A DNA stretch of 64,000 nucleotides from Deltaproteobacteria bacterium (GTDB lineage: Bacteria; Desulfobacterota; Binatia; UTPRO1): positions 10,825-74,824 of the forward strand of contig JAJCZP010000168.1 in the NCBI GenBank assembly GCA_029262315.1, given 5' to 3'. How positions within the stretch are numbered: position 1 is the first letter of the stretch; each line of letters begins with the position of its first letter. Positions 7,733 through 50,253 of the stretch are shown here, piece after piece. The notes under the pieces are model-generated. The model was not told the DNA's origin. It searched no databases and saw only the letters and a program-made list of their open reading frames with translations. Both the position numbers and the translations under genes were made by a program.

Positions 7733-7735
7733 CTC

Positions 7736-8320: not shown

Positions 8321-8336
8321 AACTCGGCTACCCGGT

Positions 8337-8359
8337 GGTTTGCAGATGGTTTGCAAACC
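8337..8359. promoter_or_regulatory. hairpin/palindrome ggtttgca-N7-tgcaaacc (contains perfect 12-bp palindrome GGTTTGCAAACC) between OLD gene and tRNA-Ser 3' end
   Basis: Seen in sequence. No U-tract follows. Candidate integrase core-type site or transcription attenuator. Confidence 0.3.
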
Positions 8360-8418
8360 GCTGGCAAGGCCCTCGCAGACTATCAGGACGAGGACCGCAA
8401 GCTCCTGAAGTTATTGAG

Positions 8419-8503
8419 CGGAGGGGGTGGGATTCGAACCCACGAGAGCTTGCGCCCTGCCGGTTTTCAAGACCGGTGCCTTCGACCGCTCGGCCACCCC
8501 TCC
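8419..8503 (-). tRNA. tRNA-Ser (anticodon UGA)
   Basis: Reverse complement folds as GGAGGGG-T-GGCCGAGCGGTCGAAGGC-ACCGG-CTTGAAA-ACCGG-long variable arm-GTGGGTTCGAATCCCAC-CCCCTCC-G. It has a 7-bp acceptor stem, a 5-bp anticodon stem and a loop CU-UGA-AA. The long variable arm indicates a class II tRNA. CCA is not encoded. Plus-strand ORF 8351..8650 ('GGGIRTHE') is the tRNA shadow. Confidence 0.85.
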
Positions 8504-8697
8504 GGTGGTGTGCGCGTGAAGCGCCGGGCCGAGTTTTGCCCTGCCCGCTCGAAGTTGCAACCGACGCCGTATCGGCGCGGCGGACACGGCCGTGAGGAAT
8601 TCGATGTACGGCGCCGCGGCTCAGCGTCGGAGCGCTACCCTACACCCTGATTGCGCTATTTGAGGTACCTGAGCACTCGCGAGCCGCGCCCCGCTGT

Positions 8698-11124
8698 TCA
8701 CGGATTGCACTCTGCCGCGTACTCGATACCGACCGCCGACACGTCATCCCCCACGCTCGCATCGGCCATGCAGTCGGCCTTGAACTCGAGAACGCAGCTG
8801 ATGCAGTCGACGTACTCCTGCAGGGTATCGACGTCGGCGTTGGTGCAGTCGAGGCCACTCGGATGAACGCCGTTCGGCGGCACACTGACGCTCGGGCATA
8901 CGTACGGCAGGTCGACGATGTCGCCGAGCGTGATCGTCACGCCGCTCACGGGTTCACCAACGGCATCACACACGCCGTCCTTGTCGGCGTCGCCGCCCCC
9001 ACCGCACGTCTTGCAGATCTTGGCGATGCTCTTCTGCTCGGCCTTTTTGATCTTCTCGGTGGTCTTGCTGTCGCCGGGGGTGGCGGGTGGATTGCCCGAG
9101 CCGAGTGAGGGATCGGTCTCGGGACATGCGTCGGCATCGTCATATCCGGTCTTGCTCTTCAACTTGGCGTCCCAGCACTTGTTCAAGAGCTTGTGCTTGG
9201 TCACCAGGAACTTGCCGCCCTCTTTGGCGATGGTCTCCTGACACTTGTTGACCCGCTTCCCGGGATCGCCGCTGTTGGCCGGGAAGAAGCTCGCCGTGTT
9301 GAACTCGTCGTAGAGGAGATGGTCGACGGCCTGATCCACGGCCTTGTCGACGATACATTCGAGGCACGTTCCGATGCCGCCACAATCGGTGATGGCATTG
9401 TCGCATTCGGTCCCGGTGCCTGACTCGAGGTTCATGCAGCTGCCGATGCCCCAGCCGATCGCAGCGAGCGTCTCGTCACCGTCACCCGGGGCAACCTCAC
9501 AGATCCTGTTCGACCCCCCGCAGCGCTTGGCGATCCCGTCCTTCAGCTTGGTGACGGCACGGTCGATCTTGCTACCGGGGGTCTTCAGGGCCGCGACCGT
9601 GCAGTTGGCAAAGTCGGGCATGAGCGGCGGATCGCCGCGGGTCATCGACGCTTTCTTGCACTTGTCGATGTTCTTCTGCACCTGCTTCGCGTACTTGCCG
9701 ACTTCTTTGTTGATGGCGCGCGTACACTTGGCGGAGTCGCTGCTTGCGGGTGTGGCCACGCCATCAGCAATCCCCTCGATGGCCGCCACGAGGGCGTTGT
9801 ACGCGATCAACTGGCCGGCGTTCAGGTTGCCGACGGGAAGCAGATTCATGGTCTCGAACGGGAAGGCGTTCAGGTCGAAGAACTCTTCATACACCCCATT
9901 CCGCCAGATCAACTTGTACTGATCGTCGCGAACGGCACGCTGCTCGTCGGTATACGGACCGAAACCGTTCGGCTCGAAGCGCTCGGCGTAGGAATAGGGC
10001 CGAGCCGAGGAGGTCGTGAGCGTGGGATCTTCGAGATACGGCACGAAACTCAGCGAGTCTTCGGTCGCGGCTGCGACCCCTGCGATCTCGGCGATGGTCG
10101 CGAGCAGATCCACCGAGCTGACGAGCGCCTGGCTCTCGTCGCCTTCGTCGAGGGCATCGATCCGCGGGCCCGTCACGATCAACGGGACGTTGGTTCCACC
10201 TTCGTACAGCGACCCCTTGGCGTGCGGCCCGGTGAACGGGGATTCCGACGCGCCCGACGGCGTACCGTTGTCGCCGATGAAGATGACCGTGGTATCGGCC
10301 CGGATGGGAGCAGGAATACTCGCCAATACACGGCCGATCTCGGTGTCCATCGCTTCCACGGCGGCCTTGAACTTGGTGGGATTGTCGGAGCCGGCATTGA
10401 CCGCAATGGTCGTGAGACTCGGTGGCGGCACGTGGAACGGCGTATGGGCAGCGTTGAACGCCAGCCACACGAACCACGGATCCTCGCCATACTCGGCGAT
10501 CTTCGCGATCGCCTCGTCGGCGGCGTCGGTCGTAGCATAGGTGGTCACGCCGACCTGGGTGGAGCCCGTCGTGCTCGTCGAGTTGGTCGTCTTGTTCCAC
10601 GATTCGTAGTCGCCGATGCCACCGCCGAGCCCGCCGGCGTAGTAGTCGAAGCCGGTGTCGATCGGGTGGTCGACATCGCCGTTATCGCCGATGTGCCATT
10701 TCCCGATCGCGGCGGTGTGATGCGTCGCCGTAAGTAACTCCGGAATCGTCGTCTCGTCGAGATCGAGCACCGCCGACTCGGGCACGCCGATGCCGGTCCG
10801 GAATCCGTAGCGTCCGGTCAGGGCCTCGGCGCGTGTCGGCGCGCATACGGGGTTCGTCGATGCGTGGCGAAACAGGATGCCGTCGGCGGCCAGCTGATCG
10901 ATATTGGGCGTGGGACCCGGAGCCGCCCCTTCGCCGTAGACGTTGATCCCGTCCACGCCGACGTCATCGGCGATGATGATCAGGAAGTTGTCTCGCGCCT
11001 GCGCCCACGTGGGGAGGAGAACGGCGACGAGCAACGCGATTGCCCGGAGCGCGCTCGCACTCCGACGTACGCGGCCCGCGTTGGTGGCGTGGCCCGCGTG
11101 AGCAACTCTTCGGGTTCTCGACAT
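8698..11124 (-). CDS. secreted formylglycine-type sulfatase (arylsulfatase family) with ~330-aa Cys/Lys-rich C-terminal extension
   Basis: Signal peptide ...ALRAIALLVAVLLPTWAQA. LIIIADDVG and NPVCAPTRAEALTGRY are the C-x-P-x-R formylglycine motif. GKWHIGD is also present. The C-terminal ~330 aa carry about 26 Cys in two similar modules (KCTRAINKEVGKYAKQVQKNIDKCKK... / KCQETIAKEGGKFLVTKHKLLNKCWDAKLK...). Confidence 0.8.
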   Translation of the reverse strand: MSRTRRVAHAGHATNAGRVRRSASALRAIALLVAVLLPTWAQARDNFLIIIADDVGVDGINVYGEGAAPGPTPNIDQLAADGILFRHASTNPVCAPTRAEALTGRYGFRTGIGVPESAVLDLDETTIPELLTATHHTAAIGKWHIGDNGDVDHPIDTGFDYYAGGLGGGIGDYESWNKTTNSTSTTGSTQVGVTTYATTDAADEAIAKIAEYGEDPWFVWLAFNAAHTPFHVPPPSLTTIAVNAGSDNPTKFKAAVEAMDTEIGRVLASIPAPIRADTTVIFIGDNGTPSGASESPFTGPHAKGSLYEGGTNVPLIVTGPRIDALDEGDESQALVSSVDLLATIAEIAGVAAATEDSLSFVPYLEDPTLTTSSARPYSYAERFEPNGFGPYTDEQRAVRDDQYKLIWRNGVYEEFFDLNAFPFETMNLLPVGNLNAGQLIAYNALVAAIEGIADGVATPASSDSAKCTRAINKEVGKYAKQVQKNIDKCKKASMTRGDPPLMPDFANCTVAALKTPGSKIDRAVTKLKDGIAKRCGGSNRICEVAPGDGDETLAAIGWGIGSCMNLESGTGTECDNAITDCGGIGTCLECIVDKAVDQAVDHLLYDEFNTASFFPANSGDPGKRVNKCQETIAKEGGKFLVTKHKLLNKCWDAKLKSKTGYDDADACPETDPSLGSGNPPATPGDSKTTEKIKKAEQKSIAKICKTCGGGGDADKDGVCDAVGEPVSGVTITLGDIVDLPYVCPSVSVPPNGVHPSGLDCTNADVDTLQEYVDCISCVLEFKADCMADASVGDDVSAVGIEYAAECNP

Positions 11125-22380: not shown

Positions 22381-22482
22381 CGCCGCCTCGTAGCACGCGG
22401 CCCCGGAGGCATCAATTGAGCGGGCTGAACGGCAGCCCGCGCGCCCATGAAAGGCGGCACGGGGCTATCCCGGTGGCGCCGC

Positions 22483-22851
22483 TTAGTCCGCGCGGAACGC
22501 GTCGACGACGTGCGCGATCCCAACGACCGACCCACGCATGTCGATGGCGACCACGTCGAATCTGAGCCCCGCCGCCCGACGCGGATACTCCGCAAGGTAG
22601 TGCCGCGCGACCCGCAACACCTTGATCTGCTTCTGGCGCGTCACCGATTCGACGGCCTGCCCCGCGACCGCGCTCCGCCGGGTCCGCACCTCACAAAACA
22701 CGAGCACCGACCCGTCACGAAAGATGAGGTCGATCTCACCCCGCCGACAGCGATAGTTGCGTGAGACCACAACATGCCCGCGAGCCGCAATGAACGCCGC
22801 CGCCAGGTCCTCGCCAATTCTCCCCCAGCGCCGCCGCTCCTCCGTCACCAC
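22483..22851 (-). CDS. YraN family (UPF0102) endonuclease
   Basis: GEDLAAAFIAARGHVVVSRNYRCRRGEIDLIFRDGSVLVFCEVRTR is the YraN/UPF0102 pattern. Confidence 0.7.
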   Translation of the reverse strand: MVTEERRRWGRIGEDLAAAFIAARGHVVVSRNYRCRRGEIDLIFRDGSVLVFCEVRTRRSAVAGQAVESVTRQKQIKVLRVARHYLAEYPRRAAGLRFDVVAIDMRGSVVGIAHVVDAFRAD

Positions 22852-22919
22852 CCCATAGTGAAGCAGACCACCACGCTGGTCCCAGCACTACGAGTAGGCC
22901 CCGCGCAAACGAGACGTTC

Positions 22920-23711
22920 CTACGCCAGCCCCAACATCTCGCTGATGCCGTAGCGGTGCCCAGCCGTCAGGCCGCCGTCGACGACGAGGGCATGCCCGAC
23001 GACGAACGAGGCATCGTCCGAGGCCAGGAACAGCACGGCGGAGGCGATCTCTTCGGAGCGCCCCAAACGCCCGAGCTGATGCGCATCGGCGATGCGCTCG
23101 CGCACCGGACCGAGATCGTTCTGGTCGAAGATGGACCGCAACAGCGGCGTATCGACGAAGCCCGGGCAGACGCAGTTCACGCGGATGCCGCGCCGCGCAT
23201 AGTCGATGGCGAGGTTTTTCGTCAGGACCACGACCCCGCCCTTCGAGGCGTTGTAGGCGCTGCCGCCTTCGGTTCCTTCGAGGCCCTCGATACTCGCGAT
23301 ATTGACGATGTTGCCGGCGCGGCGTTCGAGCATCCCCTCGACCGCGTACTTGCACATGAGGTACGTGCCTTTGAGATTGATGTCGACGACGCGGTCCCAC
23401 TCCTCGCTCGGCAACATGTGCACCGGCCCACCACCGCCGACGCCAGCGGCATTCACGAGGACATCGAGCCGACCGAAACGCTCCTCGACCGCGCGCACCG
23501 TGGCTTGAACGCCCTGCTCATCTCGAACATCACCGGCGCGATACAGCGACTCCGGCGCGTCCGCGACCAACGTTGCCCAGTTGGCGGGCTCCTCACTGAC
23601 GTCGAAGCCGGCGACACGAGCCCCCTCGCGCGCGAACCGTTCAACACACGCGGCGCCTATACCCGATGCGGCGCCCGTCACGAGTGCAACCTTGTTCTCC
23701 AAACGTCCCAT
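22920..23711 (-). CDS. SDR family NAD(P)-dependent oxidoreductase
   Basis: TGAASGIG Rossmann motif, NAAG, and YNASK catalytic motif. Confidence 0.85.
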   Translation of the reverse strand: MGRLENKVALVTGAASGIGAACVERFAREGARVAGFDVSEEPANWATLVADAPESLYRAGDVRDEQGVQATVRAVEERFGRLDVLVNAAGVGGGGPVHMLPSEEWDRVVDINLKGTYLMCKYAVEGMLERRAGNIVNIASIEGLEGTEGGSAYNASKGGVVVLTKNLAIDYARRGIRVNCVCPGFVDTPLLRSIFDQNDLGPVRERIADAHQLGRLGRSEEIASAVLFLASDDASFVVGHALVVDGGLTAGHRYGISEMLGLA

Positions 23712-23714
23712 GAC

Positions 23715-24641
23715 TCAGCTCCAGTGCCCGCGAACGAAGGTGCCGATCTTGGCGACCGCGTCGTCGGCCTCGGGGATGATCGGCGAGAAAGCGTGCCACA
23801 CGTGGATCATCTCGTCCCACGCTTCGAGCGTCACCGCGACGCCCGCCGCGCGCGCGCGTTCGGCAAGCCTGGTCGCATCATCGAGCAACACTTCGCGGCC
23901 GCCCACGTGGATGAGCAGCGGCGGGAGCCCCGCGAGTTCCGCGAATACCGGACTGGCAAGCGGCGTCGCCGGATCGGCGCCGTGGAGATACGCCTCGGCC
24001 ATCGGCGCCAGGGTCTCCCGACTGACCATGGGATCGCTCGCGGCCTTGCTGCTCATCGAGGGTGCCGTGAGGGTGAGATCGGTCCACGGCGAGATGCAGA
24101 CCGCCGCCGCCGGCAACGGGATACCGGCGTCGCGCAGCGCAACGAGCGCCGCCGCCGTCAATCCGCCCCCGGCCGAGTCCCCGGCAATGACGATCTTGCC
24201 TGGCGCGACGCCAGTCTCCAGCAGCCACCGATACGACGCCACGGCGTCGTCGACTGCCGCCGGATACGGGTGCTCCGGTCCAAGCCGATAGTCGACGGTC
24301 AGCCCCTGCGCATCGCAAGCACGCGCCAGACGGGCGACGAGCAGCCGGTGGGTGCGCGGCGATCCCAGCACGTAGCCGCCGCCGTGCAGGTACAGCACGA
24401 CATGGTCGACGCGCGTTGCCTCGGGCCGCACCCATTCGGCCGGCACGCCCCCGGCGTCGATCGCTTCGAGGCGCGCCCCCTCGGGGGGCGGAGCCGCCGC
24501 TGTCAACGTCTCGAAGTTCGCACGCATCTGCTCGATGCTCAGGGGCTCCGCGACAGTACCCGCCCCCAGCATCTCGATGACCGCCTGCACGCCTGCGTTT
24601 GCCATGACGCCCGCTCTACCAGCCTGTCCGAGCAGTGTCAC
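23715..24641 (-). CDS. alpha/beta hydrolase, HSL-type esterase/lipase
   Basis: LYLHGGGYVLG is the HGGG oxyanion box. IVIAGDSAGG is the GDSAG nucleophile elbow. Confidence 0.8.
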   Translation of the reverse strand: MTLLGQAGRAGVMANAGVQAVIEMLGAGTVAEPLSIEQMRANFETLTAAAPPPEGARLEAIDAGGVPAEWVRPEATRVDHVVLYLHGGGYVLGSPRTHRLLVARLARACDAQGLTVDYRLGPEHPYPAAVDDAVASYRWLLETGVAPGKIVIAGDSAGGGLTAAALVALRDAGIPLPAAAVCISPWTDLTLTAPSMSSKAASDPMVSRETLAPMAEAYLHGADPATPLASPVFAELAGLPPLLIHVGGREVLLDDATRLAERARAAGVAVTLEAWDEMIHVWHAFSPIIPEADDAVAKIGTFVRGHWS

Positions 24642-28908: not shown

Positions 28909-29141
28909 GAACACGCGTTTTCCAGCGCGGTAGAAGTAGCGTTCCCCACGCGTCGCGGGGTAACGGCACCGCGCACCACAAGCGGCGGCCCCTACGCACC
29001 ACGTCGCCCCGCAAGCGTGGAGCCGCACCAGAACCGCGACTCAGTGACCGTGTGGCACGTGGCCGATGCCGAAGTGCAGAAAAGGCAGGCTCGCCAAGGC
29101 GAGTCCGAGAAGTGTCGCCAGCGTCCATGCCGCAGCGGATC

Positions 29142-29549
29142 TCACGCCGCGCTCTTCTCGCTCCGCGCGAGGAGTCCCAGCAGGACGATCAGGAACCCGG
29201 TCGTCCCATAGACCGGTCCGGCATCTATCGCCCATTGGCCGGGAGGAAAGAGACCTCGCACCGTATCGAGTACGTGGATCAGTGCATGCGCGGTGTTGAA
29301 CACCGTCACCACGACAAGAAGCGGAAAGCGGAACGCAGGACGACGTGCACCCCAGGCCAGGGCCGCGCCGAGGGTCGAGAAGGTGGCGCCGATGTCGCGA
29401 ACGAAGTGCTCGTTCAGCGGCCCCGAACCAGGCACGCCAGGGAACGCGTGATACCAACCAGCCGGGTCGACCAGCATCCACAGCCCAATGGCCAGATTGC
29501 CAACCGCTCCGATCGCGAAGATCAGCCCCCATCGGCGCTCGTTCAGCAT
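29142..29549 (-). CDS. small integral membrane protein (hypothetical)
   Basis: Three predicted hydrophobic helices (GLIFAIGAVGNLAIGLWMLV, FPLLVVVTVFNTAHALIHV, TTGFLIVLLGLLA). Confidence 0.5.
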   Translation of the reverse strand: MLNERRWGLIFAIGAVGNLAIGLWMLVDPAGWYHAFPGVPGSGPLNEHFVRDIGATFSTLGAALAWGARRPAFRFPLLVVVTVFNTAHALIHVLDTVRGLFPPGQWAIDAGPVYGTTGFLIVLLGLLARSEKSAA

Positions 29550-29685
29550 CGACGAACTGTAGCGAAGCCGCTCGGCAATCGGAACCCTCCACGCCTCCGG
29601 GAGCGACCACCTGGATGGCGCGGATGCGCCGTCTTGCCAGGCCGGCGATCGGCAAACAAGCGCTACTCGCAGACGTAAAAGGAAA

Positions 29686-30897
29686 TCAGGTCGAGTACGC
29701 GGAATTGAAGCGCACGTACGCTGGCGTGAGATCGCTCGTCGTCATCGCCGCCGCGCCGGTCCCGCCGCTGCCGAGATCGATACCGACGGTGAACGCCGAC
29801 TGGCGCATCAAGCGCGCCGCGCGGCGTTCGGCATCGCCTGGCACGGGCGCTCCCCGACGTAGCACCGGCACATTCCCGATGCGGACCGTCATCCGCTCGA
29901 GTCGCAGCGGCACGCCGGCATAGCCCGCCGCGCATACGATCCGGCCCCAGTTGGGATCTCCGCCGTACAACGCCGTCTTGACCAGCAGCGAGCCAGCAAT
30001 CGAGCGCGCCACCTGCCGCGCGGCCCGTCCACTTCGCGCGCCCCGGACGGCGATCCGCACGCGCTTGGTCGCCCCCTCCCCGTCGGCCACGACGTAATCC
30101 GCGAGTTCGCGCGTGACCGCCGCCAGTGCCGCACCGAACCGGCGACCATCGGCCGAGGTTCGGGCGAGAGGAGCGTTTCCGGCGTATCCGTTCGCCAGCG
30201 CAAGCACCGTGTCGTTCGTGCTCGTGTCTCCGTCGACCGTGATCGCATTGAAGGACTCGGCAACCGCGTCCGCGAGAAAGCCGCGGAGTGCCGGTGTGGG
30301 CACCGTCGCATCGGTGAGCAGGCACACGATCAGCGTTGCGAGGTCGGGCGCGATCATGCCCGCCCCCTTGGCGAGCCCAGCGATCGTCACCATGCGGCCG
30401 TCGATCCGCAGCCTACGGGACGCCACCTTGGGAAAAGCATCGGTCGTCATCATGGCGCGAGCTGCGTGCCACAACCGATCGTCGCCCAGCGCCCGCACTG
30501 CCTTTGCGATGCCCCGCACCATCGGCACGGCGGGGAGCGGCACGCCGATCTTCCCGGTAGAACACGGCACTACGGCGGAGACTGGTATGCCGAGCGCGAT
30601 CGCGGTCTGCCGACATGCGGCTCGCGCCACCCGTTCGCCCGCCGCGCCCGTACACGCGTTGGCATTGCCGCTGTTGATCAAGACGGCCTGCCCATGGCCT
30701 CGTCGCACGTGCCGCGCCGCCAGATCCACGGCGATCGCCCGAACCCGATTCTGCGTGAACACGCCCGCAACCGTCGCGGGAACCTCGGAGTGAATCAGCG
30801 CCAGATCGCGGCGGCCGCTCGGCTTGATGCCGCAAGTGACACCGGCGAACCGAAATCCGGGAACGCGAAGCGGCCGTTCGCGGATCTCACGTCGCAT
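29686..30897 (-). CDS. argJ: bifunctional glutamate N-acetyltransferase / amino-acid acetyltransferase (ornithine acetyltransferase)
   Basis: ArgJ family: ...GMIAPDLATLIVCLLTDA contains the autoprocessing Thr site (ATL). Confidence 0.85.
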   Translation of the reverse strand: MRREIRERPLRVPGFRFAGVTCGIKPSGRRDLALIHSEVPATVAGVFTQNRVRAIAVDLAARHVRRGHGQAVLINSGNANACTGAAGERVARAACRQTAIALGIPVSAVVPCSTGKIGVPLPAVPMVRGIAKAVRALGDDRLWHAARAMMTTDAFPKVASRRLRIDGRMVTIAGLAKGAGMIAPDLATLIVCLLTDATVPTPALRGFLADAVAESFNAITVDGDTSTNDTVLALANGYAGNAPLARTSADGRRFGAALAAVTRELADYVVADGEGATKRVRIAVRGARSGRAARQVARSIAGSLLVKTALYGGDPNWGRIVCAAGYAGVPLRLERMTVRIGNVPVLRRGAPVPGDAERRAARLMRQSAFTVGIDLGSGGTGAAAMTTSDLTPAYVRFNSAYST

Positions 30898-30972
30898 GAC
30901 ACACCACTACGCCTTCACGTCGCATGACACACCACTACGCCTTCACGTCGCATGACACACCACTACGCCTTC
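30889..30972. repeat. perfect 28-bp tandem repeat x3 (acgtcgcatgacacaccactacgccttc) spanning secA stop / argJ start junction
   Basis: Three identical contiguous units at 30889-30916, 30917-30944 and 30945-30972. Each unit contains the reverse complement of '...AAG GCG TAG' (secA K-A-stop), a 9-nt spacer, and 'ATG CGA CGT' (argJ M-R-R). Confidence 0.9.
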
Positions 30973-33656
30973 GCGCCGCAACACTTCTTGTACTTCTTGC
31001 CCGAACCGCACACGCACGGATCGTTCCGTCCCACCTTGGGCTGGTCGCGGCGGACGGTCTCTGGCTTCGCATCGGCACCCGCCTCGCCGTGGCTCATGAC
31101 CATGGGCGTCGCCCGGCGCTTCTGCTCGAGCCGCTCGACGTCCTCCTCGCGCGCGAGTTGGACCGTATAGAGCCGCTCCACGATATCGACATCGAGCCGC
31201 CCCATCATTTCCTGGAACATCTCGAACCCTTCGCGCTGATACTCGTTCAAGGGATTCTTCTGCCCGTAACCGCGGAGACCGATGCCTTCCTTGAGATGGT
31301 CCATCGCGAGGAGATGGTCCTTCCACGTGCCATCGATCGTCTGCAGCATGATCACCTTCTCGAGGTGCCGCAGCACGGGCGCGGTGAACGTTTGTTCTCG
31401 CTCTCCGTAGAGCGCCTTGACCCGCTCGACGAGGAGCTCTTGCACCGCCTCGGGTGTCAGGCCGGCCTGCTCATCCTCGGAAAGATTCAGACGACAATTG
31501 AATTGCTTGAACACCAGATCGTCGAGCGCCTTCCAGTCCCACTCGGAAGGATGGATGTCTTTACTGATCACCTGCGGCACGAGGTTCTCGGCCAGGTCCT
31601 CGGCGGCCTCGATCACGTCTTCCTTGAGATCGACCTCGGCCAGTACCGCGCGACGGCGGGCGTAGATGACCTCACGCTGCTTGTTCATGACGTCGTCGTA
31701 TTCGAGGAGGTGCTTCCGGATGTCGAAGTTGTGCCCTTCGACCTTCTTTTGCGCATTCTCGATGGCGGCGTTGATCCACCGATGCTCGATGGGCTCGCCT
31801 TCCTCCATCCCAAGGCGCTCCATGATCTTCTGCACCCGCTCGGCGCCGAAGATGCGCAGGAGATCGTCCTCGAGCGACATGTAGAACCGCGATGTTCCGG
31901 GATCGCCTTGGCGCCCGGAACGGCCGCGCAGCTGATTGTCGATACGCCGACTCTCGTGGCGCTCGGTGCCCAGGATGTGCAGCCCGCCGGCCTCCAGCAC
32001 CTTCTCGCGATCGGCGGCACACTCCACCTTGTGCTTCTCGAACGCGGCCTGGAACGTTGGATCGTTCGGATCGCGGGTGCCGGCCTCGTTCGCGGCCAGC
32101 GTCTCCGCGTTGCCTCCGAGGACGATGTCGGTACCGCGGCCGGCCATGTTCGTCGAGATCGTGAGCGAGCCCGAGCTGCCCGCCTGCGCAACGATCTCGG
32201 CCTCGCGGCCGTGCTGCTTGGCGTTCAGCACGTCGTGCTTGATGCCGCGCTGCTTTAGAAGTCGGCCGACGTGTTCTGACTTTTCGATCGAGATGGTGCC
32301 GACCAAGATCGGTTGGCCGCGGGCGTGGCGCTCGGCAATATCGTCGGCGACCGCCTCGAACTTCTCGCGTTCGGTCTTGTAGACGACGTCGGGCAAGTCT
32401 TCACGAACCATCGGCTTGTGCGTCGGCATGACCATCACGCCGAGCCCGTAGATCTGCCCGAACTCCACGGCCTCGGTGTCGGCAGTGCCGGTCATGCCCG
32501 CGAGCTTCTTGTACATGCGAAAATAGTTCTGGAACGTCACCGTCGCGAGCGTCTGGTTCTCGCGCTCGATCTTGACGTTCTCCATCGCCTCCACGGCCTG
32601 GTGGAGCCCATCGCTCCAACGCCGCCCGGGCATCATTCGGCCGGTGAACTCGTCGACGATGATGATCTCGCCGTCCTTCACGACATAGTCGACGTCGCGC
32701 CTGTAGAGCGCGTGCGCGCGCAGCGCCTGATTCACATGGTGGAGCGTGTCGATCTGGCCCGGATCGTACAGGTTCGAAACGCCAAGAATCTCCTCGACCT
32801 TATTGATACCCTCCTCGGTCAGTAGGGCGTTCTTCGTCTTCTCGTCGACCGTGAAGTGCTCTTCCTTCTGCAGCCGGGGAATGACGCGATCGACGACATA
32901 GTACTTCTCCGTCGACTCCTCCGCCGGGCCGGAGATGATGAGCGGCGTCCGCGCCTCATCTATGAGAATCGAATCGACCTCGTCGACGATCGCGTAGTTG
33001 AAGAGCTTGGTGACTTGTTGGCCTTTGAAGTTCGTCACCTCCTCCGGCTTCACGCGATGCACGTACTCGTCGAGGTCGAACTTCATGTTGTCGCGGAGGT
33101 AATCGAACCCGAACTCGTTGTTCTGTCCGTAGGTGACGTCGGCGTTGTAGGCGACCTTCCGTTCCTGATCGTCCATCCCATGAAGGATGACGCCGATCGA
33201 CAAGCCGAGGAAGTTGTAGAGCCGCCCCATCCACTCGGCGTCACGCCGGGCCAGGTAATCGTTCACGGTGATGACGTGCACGCCCTCGCCGGCAAGCGCG
33301 TTCAGGTAGACCGGAAGCGTGGCCACCAGCGTCTTCCCTTCACCGGTCTTCATCTCGGCCAGGACGCCTCGGTGGAGCACCACACCACCGAGCAGCTGGA
33401 CATCGAAGTGGCGCATCCCGAGGACGCGTATGGAGGCCTCCCGGCAGACGGCGAACGCCTCCGGCAGGAGATCGTCGAGCGAGGCCCCCTGCTCGAGCTG
33501 CTCCTTGAACGCACCCGTCTTGGCACGCAACTCGTCGTCCGAGAGCGCCTGTATCGCCGGCTCGAGCTCATTGATGCTCGCCACGATGGGCTGCATCTTC
33601 TTGAGGTCGCGGTCGTTCTTGGTCCCGATGACCCTACGGACGAGACTTTTCAGCAT
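30963..33656 (-). CDS. secA: preprotein translocase ATPase subunit SecA
   Basis: Full-length SecA: DEAD-like motor ([12 protein letters not shown]...), C-terminal zinc-binding tail [14 protein letters not shown]. 897 aa. Confidence 0.95.
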
Positions 33657-33735
33657 CGAATCCTTCTAGTCATAACGCAGCCGCGAAGGTGCCGCAAAGG
33701 TGGCTCCTTTCGGGGGGCCGTGTTAGCCGACACGC

Positions 33736-34668
33736 ATGGCTATCGAGACCTTGAAAACGATGACCTACGAGGTCACCGGGCGGATCGCGCGCATCACCTT
33801 GAACCGGCCTGCCCGGGGCAATGGCATCACCCTCGACCTACCGCGCGAGCTCGCCAGTTGCGTGGAACAGGCCGATCTCGACCCCACCGTCCACGTAATC
33901 GCGCTTGCCGGCAACGGCAAGGGCTTCTGTGGCGGGTACGATCTGGTCGCCAGCGCCGAACGCCTCACGGACGGTGATCGTCCGGGCCTCGGCGAGGCGA
34001 CGGCACCCGCAGGCTCGGCGATCGACCCACGCGTCACCGCCCGCAACCACGACCCACGGGAGACCTGGGACCCGATGGTCGACTATCAGATGATGGCCCG
34101 GAATGTCCGCGGATTCATGAGCCTCTTCCACGCCAACAAGCCGGTCGTCTGCAAGGTGCAGGGCTTCTGCGTCGCCGGCGGTACCGACATGGCCCTCTGC
34201 AGCGATCTGCTGGTGATCGCCGAGGATGCGAAGATCGGCTACCCCCCGGCACGCGTCTGGGGATCGCCCACGACTTCGGTCTGGGCCTTTCGGATCGGCA
34301 TCGAGAAAGCGAAGCGACTGCTCTTCACGGGCGACTGCCTGAACGGACGCGAGGCCGTCGACTGGGGCCTCGCCACCGAGTGCGCACCGGCCGCCGATCT
34401 CGACACGCGCTTCGAAGTACTACTCGACCGCATCGCCCAGATGCCCATCAATCAGCTGATGATGATGAAGCTTCTCGTCAATCAAACGGTACTCGCGGCC
34501 GGGCTCCAGCCAACGCAAATCCTTGGTACTGTCTTCGACGGCATCACGCGACACACCCCTGAAGGCTACGCGTTCCAGCAGCGCGCGGCGGACGTGGGCT
34601 TCAAGACCGCTGTCCGCGAACGCGATGAACCCTTCGGCGACACCGGCCCACGTACGTTCAAGGGGTAG
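33736..34668 (+). CDS. enoyl-CoA hydratase/isomerase (crotonase) family protein
   Basis: RITLNRPARGNGITLDLPRELASCVEQADLDPTVHVIALAGNGKGFCGGYDL is the crotonase fold N-terminal signature. Confidence 0.8.
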   Translation: MAIETLKTMTYEVTGRIARITLNRPARGNGITLDLPRELASCVEQADLDPTVHVIALAGNGKGFCGGYDLVASAERLTDGDRPGLGEATAPAGSAIDPRVTARNHDPRETWDPMVDYQMMARNVRGFMSLFHANKPVVCKVQGFCVAGGTDMALCSDLLVIAEDAKIGYPPARVWGSPTTSVWAFRIGIEKAKRLLFTGDCLNGREAVDWGLATECAPAADLDTRFEVLLDRIAQMPINQLMMMKLLVNQTVLAAGLQPTQILGTVFDGITRHTPEGYAFQQRAADVGFKTAVRERDEPFGDTGPRTFKG

Positions 34669-34728
34669 GGATCGGCGAACGCGCACCGTCGCCAGGTCCG
34701 CACGACAATCGTTTCGTTGCCAATTTCC

Positions 34729-34777
34729 GCCTCAGCGCTCGATGCGTACGGCGGCCTCAGCGCTCGATGCGTACGGC
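34729..34777. repeat. 24-bp direct repeat x2 (gcctcagcgctcgatgcgtacggc, period 25) duplicating the murI 3' end/stop
   Basis: Units at 34729-34752 and 34754-34777. Unit 2 contains the murI stop (complement of 34757-34759) and last codons (..R-I-E-R-stop). Unit 1 is an extra copy in the downstream intergenic region. Confidence 0.85.
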
Positions 34778-35554
34778 CGAGTCGACCGTACTGCCGAGAA
34801 ACCGGCTTCCGATCTTGACGAAACGATCCGGAACATCGGTCACGAAAAAGGACGCCGATCCCGCCACGCCCGCACGCGCACTCCCCTGCTCCGCGAGCGT
34901 TGCCGCGACTTCGCGGGCAGTCTCGGTGGCCGAGTCGACGAGCTGGACTTCGGGCCCGAGCACCGCGCCGATCGTCTCGGCAAGCAACGGATAGTGCGTG
35001 CAGCCGAGAATCAAGCTGTCGATGTGGCTCTGGCGGAGGCTCGCGAGATAGACCCCCGCGGCCTCGCGGGCGACCGGGTTGGCCACCCACCCCTCCTCGG
35101 CCAGCGGCACGAAGAGCGGACACGCGCGGGTATAGATCTCGAGGGTCGGATCCAACGCCTGCAGTGCGCGCGTGTAGCTCCCGCTCGCGATCGTGGCCTC
35201 GGTACCAATGACGCCGACCTTCCGGTTGCGGGTCGCGCCGATGGCGGCCCGCGCCCCGGGCTCGATGACGCCGATGATCGGCACGGCAAAGCGGGCCCGC
35301 AGCATCTCGAGCGCCACTGCCGACGCACTATTGCAGGCCACGACGACCAACTTGACGCCCTTGTCCACCAGGAAGGCGGTATTCTCCTCCGCATAGCTGG
35401 CGACGGTCGCCGCCGACTTCGTTCCGTAGGGGTGGCGCGCGGTGTCGCCGAGGTAGAGGAGATCCTCGCCCGGCACGACCTCGAGCAAGCGTTGCACGAC
35501 GGTCAGTCCGCCGACGCCCGAGTCGAAAATGCCGATGCCGGGAACGCGCGTCAC
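34757..35554 (-). CDS. murI: glutamate racemase
   Basis: IGIFDSGVGGLTV, VVACNSAS and LGCTHYP motifs. Start set at GTG (complement of 35552-35554), 5 aa before IGIFDSG. The longer ORF to 35851 adds an Arg/Ala-rich, unlikely extension. Confidence 0.8.
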   Translation of the reverse strand: MTRVPGIGIFDSGVGGLTVVQRLLEVVPGEDLLYLGDTARHPYGTKSAATVASYAEENTAFLVDKGVKLVVVACNSASAVALEMLRARFAVPIIGVIEPGARAAIGATRNRKVGVIGTEATIASGSYTRALQALDPTLEIYTRACPLFVPLAEEGWVANPVAREAAGVYLASLRQSHIDSLILGCTHYPLLAETIGAVLGPEVQLVDSATETAREVAATLAEQGSARAGVAGSASFFVTDVPDRFVKIGSRFLGSTVDSAVRIER

Positions 35555-35556
35555 GA

Positions 35557-36630
35557 CTACCGGGCGGCGAGCGTCGCGCCGAGGAGTTGCTCGCGGGGCG
35601 GCGTCTCGCCGAACACCTTCTCCCACACGGGCGGCGTCTCCATGCAGAGGTAGAGCGGCACATCGGCGAAAGCCTCGGTCAGCCACGCGCGGATCTGGCG
35701 ATACATATGGACGCGTAGGGGTTGAAAGTCCCGCCACTTTCCGTCGAGCCCGGGCACCTGCTCGCCCGCCAACAACGGCAGAGGACCGAAGCGCTCGCGG
35801 ATGCGTGTTCGGAGCCCCGGGGAGAGCCGCAGAGCCCCCATGCTCGTCCACGCCAATCGATCACGCGGCACCGCGACAGCCACCGCCGCGATCAGCTCAC
35901 GGTAGCCCTCGGCCCAACCGTCGTGCTCGATCAGCGGATCGAGATGCACGCCTACTTTGTAGCCGGCCGCAACGACACGGCGCATCGCATCCAGGCGATG
36001 CGCGATCGAGGCCGTTCCGAACTCGGCTGTGGCCACGACCGCCTCGGGCGCCAGTGACCATGACACCACGACACGATCGCACGGATCGAGATCGAGCAGA
36101 TCCTCGATGGCCGTCGTCTTCGTCTTCAGCTCCAGCAACCCATTCGGCCGCGCGGCAAAGAAGGGCACCAGCTCGCGGCTGAGGCCGGTAAGCGGATCGA
36201 GAGCCAAGCTGTCGGCAAGCTCTCCGGTACCGATCCGGAACTGCCGCTCGGGATGGGCATCCAACATCGCCCCGATCTCGGCCAAACCCGCCTCGGGGTT
36301 CACGAAGGCCGTCAAAGGCGCGTTCGCGGCGAGATACTCCTGCAAGAAGCAGTAGCGACAGTCCATCGGGCAGTTCGAGGCGAAATGCATCACCAGATAG
36401 TTGCAGCAGGCCATGCCGCGCGTCCCCGCCGGGCAGTGCTCGAGAAACGCGCTCCGTCTGAGGGCGAGAACCAGCTGGCGCTTGGAGGATGCGACGTCGC
36501 CCTCGCCGAGCAGTTGGCGCCGGTCGTCGATCTCCACGACCGGCACGTCGGGCGCGCGCGACCGGCAACGCCGCACCATGGGAGCCCCGAGAACCTCACG
36601 CTCGACGAAGATGGTTTCCGGGACGAACAC
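35557..36630 (-). CDS. radical SAM protein, spore-photoproduct-lyase-like (SPL) family
   Basis: CNYLVMHFASNCPMDCRYCFLQ contains the CxxxCxxC radical SAM cluster motif in an SPL-like context. Confidence 0.7.
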   Translation of the reverse strand: MFVPETIFVEREVLGAPMVRRCRSRAPDVPVVEIDDRRQLLGEGDVASSKRQLVLALRRSAFLEHCPAGTRGMACCNYLVMHFASNCPMDCRYCFLQEYLAANAPLTAFVNPEAGLAEIGAMLDAHPERQFRIGTGELADSLALDPLTGLSRELVPFFAARPNGLLELKTKTTAIEDLLDLDPCDRVVVSWSLAPEAVVATAEFGTASIAHRLDAMRRVVAAGYKVGVHLDPLIEHDGWAEGYRELIAAVAVAVPRDRLAWTSMGALRLSPGLRTRIRERFGPLPLLAGEQVPGLDGKWRDFQPLRVHMYRQIRAWLTEAFADVPLYLCMETPPVWEKVFGETPPREQLLGATLAAR

Positions 36631-36688
36631 GCCTGATTTGTATACCTTTCCGCCCCTGCTCGGCTACGTCGAGGGGCCTCCCCTCGGC

Positions 36689-37165
36689 CTACAATTCGTC
36701 GAGGAGGCCGAAGAGGCGGGCGATGTCCCCGGCGCGAAGACTCGTGTCGAGGCGGGCAAGCGCCTGCGCAAGCGCGTCGGCGGACGTCACGGTGAGCGTC
36801 ACGGTGAGCGCTCCGCCTTCGAGCGCCGGCGGGAGCTGGATACGGGCCGCCGGGCCCAACGCCATGCCGCGAATCAGTGTCGTTGCCTCCGCCTCGCGCG
36901 CGACCAGGCGAGGATAGCGCAGGCGCCGGAGCGCCTCCTTCCAGCGCTTCAAACGGTCGGGCGCGGAGCCGCGCGCGGCGAGCAGGCGGCTGAGACCCGG
37001 GTCGGCGAGCACCGCACCTGGTCGCCCCGCGTCGCGGGTGGCGATGTCGTCCAGCCAATCGAGAATGTCGCGAAGATGGCGTGGACTCGGGCGCAACACG
37101 TCGACCACACGACCGAGCGCCACGCATTCGTGGTCGGACCAGTCGGCCGTGCGCGCATCGATCAT
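36689..37165 (-). CDS. hypothetical protein
   Basis: ORF with protein-like composition (MIDARTADWSDHECVALGRVVDVLRPSPRHLRDILDWLDD...LFGLLDEL) filling the gap between the radical SAM and GT2 genes. Start is uncertain; the longest ORF extends to 37405 but then overlaps the GT2 3' end. Confidence 0.35.
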   Translation of the reverse strand: MIDARTADWSDHECVALGRVVDVLRPSPRHLRDILDWLDDIATRDAGRPGAVLADPGLSRLLAARGSAPDRLKRWKEALRRLRYPRLVAREAEATTLIRGMALGPAARIQLPPALEGGALTVTLTVTSADALAQALARLDTSLRAGDIARLFGLLDEL

Positions 37166-37193
37166 CTCGGTGATGGCGGCGGAGGCCACGGCG

Positions 37194-38102
37194 TCACCCC
37201 CCGACACCAGCGGTGGCCCGAGCATGCGCTTGCCGCAACCCGCGACTATCCCCACATGCGGGCGGCACCAGATCGTGCGCAGCGGTCGCGAGCGCACGGT
37301 AGCGAGCCGCCTCGTCATGCCGCCCGCGACGGGCAGCCCCACCAGCCAATAGCGCGCACTTGGTGTCGAGCACGCGCAGCACTGCCTCGCGAGCCGCCGC
37401 GTCAAGCGATCGCTGCGCCAGGAACTTCACCAGCGCGGCAACGCGATATCGGTCGAGTCCCCACATCGAACGGGAAAGCTGATCCGCATGACCTCCCCGC
37501 TTTACGACCAACTGCTCAGGCACCAACCCCACGGGCTCGTCGAGGGCGACCCGCAGCCAGAGCTCGTAGTCCTCGCAGACGGGAAAACTCTCATCGAAAC
37601 CACCGAGTTCGTCGTACGCATCACGGCGAATGGCGACCGCCGAGGGACTCACGAGGCAACGCTCGAGACAGCGCGGAAAGAGCTGCTCTTCCTTGCGATG
37701 CCAGTACCGCGGGTTGCGGTGCCTCCCCGCATCGATCCAGCGCTCCGCCGTCTGCGTAAGCCGATAGGTAGGGTGTGCATCGACCCAGGCCATCTGACGT
37801 GCGAGCTTCGTCTCGAGCCAGAGATCGTCGGAATCGAGAAAGGCGATCCACGCGCTGTCGACCGCAGCAACCCCGGCGTTGCGGGCGGCGGCAACGCCGA
37901 CGTGCGGCCGGCAGAGGACGCTGGCGGCAATCGAAGCACCCTGCATCGCCTCCTCGGCCGCCACAGCGGTCCGGTCGTCCGAGCCATCGTCGACCACGAC
38001 CAGCGCGTGATCGTCATATGTTTGCGACAGCACCGACGCGATGGCGTCGAGCACGAAATCTGCCCGGTTGCGCACGGGGATCACGCACAGCACCCGCGGC
38101 AT
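37194..38102 (-). CDS. family 2 glycosyltransferase
   Basis: MPRVLCVIPVRNRADFVLDAIASVLSQTYDDHALVVVDDGSDD...FLDSDD has the GT-A DxD motifs. ATG at complement of 38100-38102 overlaps the engB stop (ATGA). The longer ORF to 38207 is rejected. Confidence 0.75.
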   Translation of the reverse strand: MPRVLCVIPVRNRADFVLDAIASVLSQTYDDHALVVVDDGSDDRTAVAAEEAMQGASIAASVLCRPHVGVAAARNAGVAAVDSAWIAFLDSDDLWLETKLARQMAWVDAHPTYRLTQTAERWIDAGRHRNPRYWHRKEEQLFPRCLERCLVSPSAVAIRRDAYDELGGFDESFPVCEDYELWLRVALDEPVGLVPEQLVVKRGGHADQLSRSMWGLDRYRVAALVKFLAQRSLDAAAREAVLRVLDTKCALLAGGAARRGRHDEAARYRALATAAHDLVPPACGDSRGLRQAHARATAGVGG

Positions 38103-38764
38103 CAGCGCGCCCGTGCTTTCGGAGCCGAGGATGCTGGCTGCGATTTCGGTCTCGGCGGGGCACCTGGCTTGCCGCGTGGCCCAGCCGGCTCCTTCTCCTG
38201 CATCCACTGCCGGATCGTACGCCAGACCGCGTCCACCCCCTCGCCCTTGACCGCGGAGAACGGCACGACCGGCAGGCCAACCTCGGACAATGCCTTCAAG
38301 GCACGGGTGCGGTCGCGCCGGTTCAGCTTGTCCACCTTCGTGGCCACGAGCAACGCCGGCAGGCCACGGGTCGCCAGAAAGTCGAGGAGCTGTTGCTCCT
38401 CGGCCTCGGGTCCGCGACGCACATCGACCAGGATCACGACACCGACCAGGACCGCGCGATCGCCGAGATAGCTCTCGACCAGCGGACGCCAGGCGGCACG
38501 CGCGCTCTGGGAGACCCTGGCATAGCCGTACCCCGGAAGGTCGACGAACACGAGGCGATCGTCGATCGCGAAAAAGTTGATCTGCTGCGTACGCCCGGGG
38601 GTACTGCTCGTACGCGCGAGCTTCCGACGCCCGAGGAGCCGGTTGATCGCCGAAGACTTGCCAACGTTGGACCGACCCGCGAACGCCACCTCCGGATGCG
38701 TGGCCGGAGGGAAGCGCCCAGGCTGACTCGATGCGCCGGCGAACGTGGCCGTGGAAATCTTCAC
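38102..38764 (-). CDS. engB: ribosome biogenesis GTP-binding protein YihA/EngB
   Basis: GRSNVGKSSAINRL is G1. DLPGYGYA is G3. TKVDKL is G4. Confidence 0.85.
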   Translation of the reverse strand: MKISTATFAGASSQPGRFPPATHPEVAFAGRSNVGKSSAINRLLGRRKLARTSSTPGRTQQINFFAIDDRLVFVDLPGYGYARVSQSARAAWRPLVESYLGDRAVLVGVVILVDVRRGPEAEEQQLLDFLATRGLPALLVATKVDKLNRRDRTRALKALSEVGLPVVPFSAVKGEGVDAVWRTIRQWMQEKEPAGPRGKPGAPPRPKSQPASSAPKARAR

Positions 38765-47478: not shown

Positions 47479-48867
47479 TCACGCTGACGTCGGGTCGTCC
47501 CCGCCACTGCTCTCGATCCGGGCCCGCGCCCGTCCAGCTGCGAACCTGATCTCGACCTCGTCGCCCGCTGCCACTGCCGCCGCGTCTCGGACGACCGTCC
47601 GATCAGGGAGCGTCCGGGTAAGACTGTAACCGCGCTGCAGGACGGCAAGCGGGCTGAGGTCGTCGAGCGCCGAAGCCGCGCGCGCCACCCGGCCCCGCGC
47701 CTGCTGCACCACGTGCCCGGCGGCAAGCTGCAGGCGGCGCTCTACCGCGTCCAGGTGCGCCGCCAGCCCCGCGGTCCGCGTCCGCGGATCCTGCACGTGC
47801 AGGCGATGCCGGGCGCTGTCAACCGCCGTGCGCGCGGCATCGAGCAGTCCACCAAGGGCCTGCGTCGCGCGCACGGTGAGCCCTTCGATGCGAACCCGAC
47901 GCTCGAGCAAGGTCCGGCGCGGATCACGGAGGCGGCGACCGAGATCGTCTACCCGCCGACGCTCTCGCGTCGTCTGGCGCTCGACCGAGGCAACGAGCGC
48001 CGCCGTCGCGCGGGCGACGGTCGCCGCGAGGTCGACGACACGCGGCACCACGATCTCGGCGGCAGCCGTTGGTGTCGGCGCCCGGCGATCGGCAACCAGA
48101 TCGGCGATCGTAACATCGACCTCGTGCCCAACCGCCGAGATAACCGGAATGCGGGACGCCAAGATGGCACGCGCTACCCGTTCCTCGTTGAAGGGCCAAA
48201 GATCCTCGAGCGATCCACCCCCGCGCCCGACGATGAGCACTTCCACCCCCGGATAGGCATTCAAGTCGGCGATGGCGCGTACCAGGTCGTCCGCGGCGCC
48301 CTCGCCTTGCACCCGCGCGGAACTGACGACCACGTGGGCTCCCGGATGTCGCTCGTGGAGCACGACGAGGATGTCCCGAAGCGCCGCACCGCCAACAGCC
48401 GTGGCGATACCGATACGGTGTGGGAAGAACGGCAGCGGACGTTTGCGCTCCTCGGCGAAGAGCCCCTCGGCGGCGAGGCGTGCCTTCAACTGCTCGAAGG
48501 CGAGTTGCAGGGCGCCCCGCCCTTGGGGGTCCATCGTCTCGACGTAGAGCTGCATCTCACCCCGCGCCGGATAGACACTCACCTGCCCACGGACGATGAC
48601 CTCCTGACCGTCCGCCGGGGTAAAGACCAACGACTGCAGGGCGCTGCGAAACATCACGCACCGCACCTGACAGCGGTCGTCCTTCAACGTGAAGTAGGCG
48701 TGCCCGGACGGAGCACGGCGCAAGTTCGACACCTCGCCGGCAACCAGGACCTGCCCGACCTCGCGCTCGAGCGTGGCGCGCAGCAGCGTCGCCAGCTCGG
48801 TCACGGAGAGCGTCGGCGACAATCCGTGGGGTCCCAGGGATCGCGACGGGCGACGAGCGACCCTCAT
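47479..48867 (-). CDS. xseA: exodeoxyribonuclease VII large subunit
   Basis: N-terminal OB-fold (LSVTELATLLRATLEREVGQVLVAGEVSNLRRAPSGHAYFTLKD) and catalytic core (RGGGSLEDLWPFNEE). Confidence 0.85.
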   Translation of the reverse strand: MRVARRPSRSLGPHGLSPTLSVTELATLLRATLEREVGQVLVAGEVSNLRRAPSGHAYFTLKDDRCQVRCVMFRSALQSLVFTPADGQEVIVRGQVSVYPARGEMQLYVETMDPQGRGALQLAFEQLKARLAAEGLFAEERKRPLPFFPHRIGIATAVGGAALRDILVVLHERHPGAHVVVSSARVQGEGAADDLVRAIADLNAYPGVEVLIVGRGGGSLEDLWPFNEERVARAILASRIPVISAVGHEVDVTIADLVADRRAPTPTAAAEIVVPRVVDLAATVARATAALVASVERQTTRERRRVDDLGRRLRDPRRTLLERRVRIEGLTVRATQALGGLLDAARTAVDSARHRLHVQDPRTRTAGLAAHLDAVERRLQLAAGHVVQQARGRVARAASALDDLSPLAVLQRGYSLTRTLPDRTVVRDAAAVAAGDEVEIRFAAGRARARIESSGGDDPTSA

Positions 48868-48894
48868 CGCTCGCTCATCGCTCGCATGGCGTGC

Positions 48895-50253
48895 CTACTC
48901 CCGCTTGGCGAGAACCGTGCTGAACACGCGCCAGCTCTTCAGCAACTCGAGCGCGTGGTCGAGCTGTGGATCGCCTCCGAGCACGCCCTGCTCAGGTAGA
49001 CCCGGCTCGGCATCTTCCGCATCGTCCGCGTCCGCATCGGGCTCGGCCCGCGCCGGCTCGCTGCCACGCCCGCGCCCGTCGATATGCCCCGGCAGATTCA
49101 GCTCGCGCACGCCAGACGTGCGATCTTCATCGACGCGCGCCATCCGCACGTTCTCCATGACGATGTCGGGCTCGATGCCTTTTGCCTGAATGGAACGTCC
49201 GCTCGGCGTGTAGTAGCGCGCCGTCGTCAGTCGAAGTGCCGAACGGTCGTCGAGTGGAAGGATGGTCTGGACGGACCCCTTGCCAAACGTGGTCGTCCCG
49301 AGCACCAGGGCGCGCTTGTGGTCCTGCAACGCGCCGGCAACGATCTCGGAGGCGCTCGCGGTGCCGCCGTTCACGAGGATCACCATCGGGAAGTCGGGAT
49401 AGCTCCCGGTGCGATGGGCGAAGTACTTCTGCTTCTGATTGTCGAGACGCCCGTCGGTGTACACGATCAGGCCCGAGTCGAGGAACAGGTCGCTGACCTT
49501 GACGGCCTGGGTGAGCAGCCCGCCGGGATCGTTGCGAAGGTCGAGCACGAGCCCCTCGATCCCGTCGCTGCGTGTCCATTCCTCGAGTGCCCGCCCGACA
49601 TCGTTGGCGGTGCGCTCCTGAAACTGTGCGATCCGGATGTAGCCGTACCCGTCGTCGAGCGTCTTCGACTTGACGCTGCGGATCTTGATCACCTCGCGCA
49701 CGAGCGAAACGTCGAGCAGTCTGCCCACCCCTTCGCGACGCAAGGTCAGCTCGATCTTCGTGCCCTTCTTGCCGCGCATTTTCTTCACGGCCTCGAGCAA
49801 CGACATGTCTTTGGTGAACTCGCCGTCGATCTTGATGATCTGGTCGGCCGCCTGCATGCCGGCCCGGTGGGCTGGCGTGTCTTCGATCGGGGAGACCACC
49901 GTCAGCACACCATCGCGCAGCGTGATCTCGATACCGAGGCCCCCGAAGCTCCCCTTCGTGTCGACCTGCAACTCCTTGTAGAGATCCGGCGTCAGGTACG
50001 CGCTGTGGGGATCCAGCGACATGAGCATGCCGGTAATGGCGCCCTCGACCAGTTGCTCGGTCTCGATCTCCTCGACGTAGTTCTTCTGCACGATCGCGAG
50101 GATGTTGGTGAAGGCCTGCAACTCTTCATAGGCCGCATCCCTGCCAACCGCGCCCACATGCTCGACCACACGCCCGCCCGCAAGGAAGGTCAACAGGACC
50201 ACGAGCAACGCGACAAAGAACGTGACACCACGCCGTGAGGAGGCCATCGTCAT
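48895..50253 (-). CDS. ctpA: carboxyl-terminal processing protease (S41 family, PDZ domain)
   Basis: Signal/TM N-terminus, PDZ (GGLGIEITLRDGVLTVVSPIEDTPAHRAGMQAADQIIKIDG), and S41 catalytic region (ILVNGGTASASEIVAGALQD...). Confidence 0.85.
   Translation of the reverse strand: MTMASSRRGVTFFVALLVVLLTFLAGGRVVEHVGAVGRDAAYEELQAFTNILAIVQKNYVEEIETEQLVEGAITGMLMSLDPHSAYLTPDLYKELQVDTKGSFGGLGIEITLRDGVLTVVSPIEDTPAHRAGMQAADQIIKIDGEFTKDMSLLEAVKKMRGKKGTKIELTLRREGVGRLLDVSLVREVIKIRSVKSKTLDDGYGYIRIAQFQERTANDVGRALEEWTRSDGIEGLVLDLRNDPGGLLTQAVKVSDLFLDSGLIVYTDGRLDNQKQKYFAHRTGSYPDFPMVILVNGGTASASEIVAGALQDHKRALVLGTTTFGKGSVQTILPLDDRSALRLTTARYYTPSGRSIQAKGIEPDIVMENVRMARVDEDRTSGVRELNLPGHIDGRGRGSEPARAEPDADADDAEDAEPGLPEQGVLGGDPQLDHALELLKSWRVFSTVLAKRE

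Follow-up and report, generated by a model that had tools for sequence, protein, structure and literature searches.

The junction between secA and argJ in this genome carries the same short sequence three times over, which raises the question of how the repeat arose and whether it does anything for the two genes that it separates. The repeat was analysed within a 64-kb stretch of DNA, here called the window, whose G+C content is 65%; the array itself was read from a single NCBI contig. Our preferred answer, to which we assign a probability of roughly 0.8, is that the array is a tandem repeat of recent origin, best called a nascent minisatellite or VNTR, which was produced by replication slippage and has been tolerated by selection. 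Mechanism, recency and near-neutrality are the parts of this answer that we infer.

The array occupies window positions 30889-30972 and consists of three identical, contiguous, head-to-tail copies of the 28-nt unit acgtcgcatgacacaccactacgccttc. In our own scan, perfect periodicity extended over 86 nt (30887-30972), which is 3 x 28 + 2, while Tandem Repeats Finder reported 30887-30980 with a period of 28, 3.4 copies, 96% matches and a score of 174. The sequence, the periodicity scan and Tandem Repeats Finder thus agree on the perfect 28-bp triplication at the secA-stop/argJ-start junction that a preliminary description of this DNA had reported. When up to three mismatches were allowed, the unit matched only the three array positions within the 64-kb window, against an expectation of 0.00 (none of 100 dinucleotide-preserving shuffles gave a match). 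The JGI metagenome contigs contained no match to a 21-mer taken from the unit. Read on the minus strand, the unit is G AAG GCG TAG TGGTGTGTC ATG CGA CGT, where TGGTGTGTC is a 9-nt spacer. The positions of the copies and of the other features discussed below are collected in Table 1.

Table 1. Features at the secA-argJ junction and at two other tandem duplications (window coordinates).
Feature	Position	Strand	Remarks
argJ	29686-30897	-	403 aa, complete
Mini-ORF 2	30887-30925	-	peptide identical to that of mini-ORF 1; TGA 30889-30887; frame differs from argJ
Unit copy 3 (argJ-proximal)	30889-30916	-	vestigial TAG 30909-30907; functional argJ ATG 30897-30895
Mini-ORF 1	30915-30953	-	12 codons; starts 9 nt past the secA stop; TGA 30917-30915
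Unit copy 2	30917-30944	-	vestigial TAG 30937-30935; second ATG 30925-30923
Unit copy 1 (secA-proximal)	30945-30972	-	last two SecA codons; functional TAG 30965-30963; first non-argJ ATG 30953-30951
secA	30963-33656	-	897 aa, complete; C-terminal SEC-C zinc motif intact
Upstream microhomology arm (arm') TCGCGCCGCA	30971-30980	given on +	inside the SecA codons for C-G-A
25-nt tandem duplication at the end of murI	34729-34777	-	24 consecutive matches, then a mismatch
xseA (exonuclease VII large subunit)	47479-48867		ORF intact
11-nt tandem duplication, CGAGCGATGAG x 2.1	48863-48885	-	spans the xseA start, just past the stop of the S41 peptidase gene
S41 peptidase gene	48895-50253		

The secA ORF scored 1255 bits against the NCBIfam SecA model PRK12904 (cut-off 814) and the argJ ORF scored 451 bits against the NCBIfam ArgJ model (cut-off 351); both are full length and score as equivalogs. 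SecA ends in ...CCGAKA*, its stop being the first TAG (30965-30963), and argJ starts at the last ATG (30897). The three ATGs of the array (30953, 30925 and 30897) lie in three different frames because 28 mod 3 = 1, and the distance from the secA stop to the argJ start is now 65 nt. The anatomy given in the preliminary description, with a TAG ending secA, an ATG opening argJ and three frames, was right in every detail. Since every copy brings its own stop and its own start, both proteins are unchanged at any copy number. Translation of SecA always stops at the first TAG, and the last ATG, with the original 19 nt in front of it, always opens ArgJ.

The junction was then compared with that of related genomes. 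The gene order of an SPL-like radical SAM gene, murI, a convergent enoyl-CoA hydratase gene, secA and argJ is conserved in three related species, whose ArgJ proteins are 91% (contigs L081-L083), 89% (L084) and 78% (L085-L088) identical to that of the window. All three species have one copy of the secA-argJ junction, the two genes being 24 or 30 nt apart. The closing codons of secA and the opening codons of argJ (the latter ATG CGA CGT GAG ATC CGC in L081) align with the window, which indicates that the unit was built from the local gene ends and not from inserted foreign DNA. The repeat thus consists of head-to-tail copies of a segment that is single-copy in relatives, as expected of a tandem duplication. 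A transposon footprint and an attachment-site scar were also considered as origins and rejected, as neither gives three tandem copies made of local gene ends.

Two further observations concern this region in the relatives. The single-copy spacer that we infer for the window (TGGTGTGTC, 9 nt; the present spacer spans 30898-30962) is 15 nt shorter than the 24-nt spacer of L081 (9977-10000). With a deletion as well as duplications in its apparent history, the secA-argJ junction looks indel-prone. Separately, in the ENA assembly L086, which belongs to the 78% relative, secA is broken into a 495-aa and a 435-aa ORF that overlap (7221-9970). Its sister assembly L085 has one 916-aa secA, and the two assemblies are 99.7% identical with a single gap; the split would represent either a frameshift error or a variant.

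The sequence at the unit boundaries bears on the mechanism. On the plus strand the region is laid out as arm-core-arm-core-arm-core-arm', in which the arm is TCACGTCGCA (30887-30896, 30915-30924 and 30943-30952). The arm matches arm' at 8 of 10 positions, so that the two form an imperfect 10-nt direct repeat, 28 nt apart and exactly at the unit boundaries. The microhomology is weak in one respect: the perfect homology that extends beyond the three units is 2 bases only (TC on the plus strand, GA on the minus strand). The 8/10 arms are therefore best described as a suggestive candidate for the slippage substrate.

If the array did arise by slippage, the steps could have been as follows. The single-copy ancestor would have read, on the coding strand, ...TGCGGCGCGA AGGCGTAGTGGTGTGTCA TGCGACGTGA GATCC.... 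The two 10-nt arms, with their 8/10 matches, would let the nascent strand re-pair one unit back, giving two copies, and two perfect 28-nt copies could then slip or recombine to give three. The internal arms are all of the argJ-side type, as would be expected from one nascent-strand misalignment after which the core was copied again. The three copies are 100% identical, which argues that the events were recent. As the duplicated segment includes both the stop of secA and the start of argJ, together with all 9 nt of spacer between them, neither protein would have been altered, and the duplication would have escaped purifying selection. In bacteria, and likewise in other organisms, microhomology-flanked segments are known to duplicate and to expand from 1x to 2x to 3x (bioRxiv 10.64898/2026.02.28.708716), and long, GC-rich microhomology is far more prone to tandem duplication (PMC8639346). 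The removal by selection of frame-breaking duplications from important genes has been shown experimentally in yeast (PMC8639346). The slipped-strand origin put forward in the preliminary description fits both the imperfect flanking direct repeat and the single copy in relatives.

A quite different explanation is that the organism has only one or two copies and that the array was inflated by the assembler or by a chimeric read. The array is known from a single NCBI contig, and the ArgJ cluster member that is 100% identical to the window ArgJ (P0121) lies on one NCBI contig of 84,262 bp; no second assembly spanning the array was found. Exact look-ups of ArgJ and SecA, aimed at finding the species elsewhere, gave no hit, and no fragment with 100% identity emerged when the N-terminus of ArgJ and the C-terminus of SecA served as protein queries. 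The ArgJ scan of the genome collection and the XseA scan of metagenomes gave distant relatives, at most 54% and 52% identical, respectively, among the matches listed. The nearest named relatives, which are metagenome-assembled genomes, are labelled Deltaproteobacteria or Candidatus Binatia.

Sequence from the organism is also present in a public sequencing run. Three Logan contigs from run SRR15505516 matched the window at 100%: L089 over 22414-24116 (1,703 bp), L090 over 28924-29867 (944 bp) and L171 over 32970-38454 (5,485 bp). These perfect matches indicate that the organism is present in SRR15505516. The contigs of this run are fragmentary near the array, and none of the three recovered stretches (0/3) covers 30887-30972, which leaves some room for an inflated copy number. 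However, an array of 84 nt would probably fit within one short read of typical length. Furthermore, L171 includes a second tandem duplication, of 25 nt at the end of murI and 3.8 kb from the 28-nt array, and reproduces it base for base. As L171 comes from an independent k-mer assembly, such duplications are in the data and are not the product of one assembler.

The murI duplication had been pointed out in the preliminary description as a similar boundary duplication (34729-34777), and it proved to be real, with a period of 25. The duplicated stretch comprises the six final codons of murI (AVRIER), the TGA and a further 3-4 nt, with the real stop at 34759-34757, and it sits in the 88-nt spacer between murI and the convergent enoyl-CoA hydratase gene. 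No flanking microhomology was found at this duplication. In the 91% relative, the murI C-terminal 9-mer CGCATCGAG recurs 22 nt later, right after the murI stop (L081, 6225-6260); this could be what is left of an earlier duplication there, which would hint at recurrence, or it may be chance.

A third duplication, of 11 nt, lies at the start of xseA. Its two upstream ATGs open a 7-codon ORF, MRAMSER*, whose TGA overlaps the xseA ATG as ATGA, and the start used before the duplication was probably 9 nt further upstream. In E. coli, ExoVII belongs to a group of single-strand exonucleases that keep tandem-repeat rearrangements in check. The window also contains a perfect in-frame repeat of 12 nt x 2.2 (36785-36810), encoding LTVTLTVT near the C-terminus of a 178-aa protein (36689-37225, called on L171) that has no family match. 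This repeat was rejected as a fresh duplication because L081 has a diverged LTVTITAT at the same place, which makes it older; it could have been homogenised in the window or could have diverged in L081.

All three perfect out-of-frame duplications in the window (28, 25 and 11 nt) straddle a stop or a start. The proportion of positions at which a duplication would spare a frame was estimated from a crude and deliberately incomplete gene model (coding fraction 0.81) and was at most 0.20, so that three out of three by chance has a probability of at most ~0.008. Such a pattern is what real mutations leave behind once selection has filtered them and is not what random artefacts leave, and it is no evidence that duplications target gene boundaries. 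The genome-wide boundary tendency suggested in the preliminary description is accordingly better read as survivorship, with out-of-frame duplications persisting only where frames are spared. The same pattern counts against an inflated array, since random artefacts would not all land at frame-sparing positions, and we regard an artefact as distinctly improbable.

The density of such duplications was also compared with that of other genomes. Perfect duplications with a period of at least 20 nt numbered two in the 64-kb window versus two loci in ~1.03 Mb of unrelated bacterial control loci. The control rate predicts ~0.12 in the window, giving a Poisson P of ~0.007, which is a post hoc value based on small numbers. 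In ~40 kb from the two closest relatives no such duplications were found. The excess of tandem duplications in the window is suggestive only; a high density, if it held genome-wide, would bear on replication or repair in this lineage. The sole perfect duplications of this period in the ~1 Mb of controls were those of a marine metagenome contig (L163, 3859-4256), where a 21-nt array of several copies and a perfect 31-nt x 3 array lie immediately downstream of an xseA homologue.

We next consider whether the array could affect expression of the genes around it. The duplication has created two mini-ORFs. The first ATG lies 9 nt past the secA stop, and the TGA of each mini-ORF starts 8 nt past the A of the ATG that follows, so that each overlaps the next ORF by 11 nt in a coupling-like geometry. 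Both the mini-ORFs and this stop-restart geometry are by-products of the duplication. The most likely effect of the array, judged from its sequence, would be a modest shift in the dependence of argJ translation on secA translation. Changes of under 20 nt in the distance from stop to start are enough to lower coupling efficiency (PMC12548453), which makes a modest effect on ArgJ synthesis plausible.

A stronger claim would be that the array is an adaptive tuning of argJ translation. It might lengthen a spacer that had shrunk to 9 nt, or a relay from the secA stop through mini-ORF 1 and mini-ORF 2 to argJ might set the ArgJ:SecA ratio by termination-reinitiation. The close spacing of stops and starts, the sensitivity of coupling to small changes in distance and the absence from the window lineage of 15 nt of spacer found in relatives all accord with such a role. 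However, a simple spacer of 24-30 nt without any repeat suffices in the relatives, and spacer length is very free across lineages. Among 80 diverse genomes sampled, secA lies directly upstream of argJ in ~19, with spacers that range from an overlap to ~400 nt; a spacer of 65 nt therefore falls within the usual range, and close coupling of the two genes is not conserved as a requirement. The copies are perfectly identical, which points to a very recent event with no sign of maintenance, and a comparable duplication lies behind murI, where the genes are convergent and no downstream gene could benefit. We consider adaptive tuning unlikely. The modulation of translational coupling or restart proposed in the preliminary description is possible but unsupported, given the range of spacers elsewhere and an unremarkable RNA fold.

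Short tandem repeats were seen in two of the other secA-argJ spacers, with CCAAATC units in a Syntrophaceae genome (L004, ~2090-2120) and GATCAAGAT-like units in a Geomonas genome (L020, ~1680-1850). Repeat formation in this spacer is thus not unique to the lineage of the window.

Searches for signals in the array itself were negative. The fold of the RNA spanning the array was no better than the folds of shuffled sequences (z = 0.09), no promoter- or terminator-like sites were found (promoter scan 30500-31400), Rfam gave no match at the array, and the inverted repeats around it were nothing notable. Elsewhere in the window, a tRNA-Ser with anticodon TGA (8418-8503, minus strand) was the sole structured RNA that Rfam found. 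Nothing in these results points to a dedicated function for the array.

The preliminary description had also called the repeat phase-variable-like. A phase-variable contingency locus would gain or lose units and thereby switch a gene on or off, and it is true that perfect tandem repeats are unstable and that 28 is not a multiple of three. In contingency loci, however, the repeat lies within a reading frame or between promoter elements, so that copy number switches expression, and here it does neither. The array is in no reading frame that matters, both ORFs stay intact whatever the copy number because each copy has its own stop and start, and no promoter-like hexamers flank it or lie inside it. 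Moreover, secA and argJ are housekeeping genes and not surface or restriction genes. Phase variation at this locus is, in our estimation, very improbable, and this part of the preliminary description was set aside.

Read as a young and selectively tolerated duplication, the array matters little alone. It is a clean natural case of a compact bacterial genome in which a frame-shifting duplication is tolerated only if the copied segment brings a stop and a start of its own, and it shows that short upstream ORFs with a coupling-like geometry can arise for free. It is also a candidate strain marker (VNTR) for an uncultivated lineage, and a place at which gene callers, and assemblers that use a short k, can err.

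Several known kinds of element resemble the array to different degrees. MIRUs (mycobacterial interspersed repetitive units) are tandem units that separate genes of the same orientation and contain a small ORF whose translation is linked to the start that follows (PMC12548453), and the array, which is likewise intercistronic and tandem with small ORFs whose ends overlap the next start, could on this likeness be a MIRU-like mobile intercistronic repeat inserted between secA and argJ. Whereas MIRUs form a dispersed and apparently mobile family with a shared consensus and an ORF coupled at a -4 overlap (PMC12548453), the array unit is a unique copy of the local junction, made of secA and argJ gene ends that are conserved in relatives, and its mini-ORFs overlap the next ORF by 11 nt. 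No dispersed family was seen either in the 64-kb window, with up to three mismatches allowed, or among the JGI metagenome contigs. MIRUs are 40-100 nt long, and the 28-nt unit is below this range. A MIRU insertion is almost certainly not the explanation. A looser version of the analogy would be that the organism generates or retains short tandem duplications at an unusually high rate, and that the secA-argJ array is a copy-number-tunable stop-restart chain which sets ArgJ per SecA, a locally born analogue of the supposed role of MIRUs in mycobacteria; we offer this as speculation and would give it little credence.

The stop followed by a start within 9 nt, and the stops that overlap the next start, also recall pairs of genes coupled by termination-reinitiation at short stop-start distances, as described in work cited in PMC12548453 (Huber et al. 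2019, 2023). In the pairs as presented there the arrangement is conserved and functional, whereas here it is a duplication by-product that is not present in relatives, and its geometry is read from sequence only.

The array also resembles the loci used for strain typing. The bacterial VNTR or minisatellite loci on which MLVA typing relies, among them the exact tandem repeats of Mycobacterium tuberculosis, have perfect units of tens of base pairs and are often intergenic. The array shares with them its short perfect units and the expectation of variation between strains, which for the array is presumed.

The closest match is with microhomology-mediated tandem duplications (Dan et al. 2021, PMC8639346; Wei et al. 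2026 preprint, 10.64898/2026.02.28.708716). These too involve a unique segment bounded by short direct repeats, perfect head-to-tail copies and expansion from 1x to 2x to 3x, and there too frame-breaking events are purged and the survivors lie where frames are spared. They are defined experimentally by copy-number variation within a population and by reversion, whereas the array is known from one sequence, and they differ from it in that its perfect arm is only 2 bp, within the 8/10 imperfect 10-nt arm. With these differences noted, the array can be classed as a microhomology-mediated tandem duplication that has grown into a three-copy minisatellite, and it is a candidate VNTR; the mutation behind it is of a known kind, of which this is an ordinary new example.
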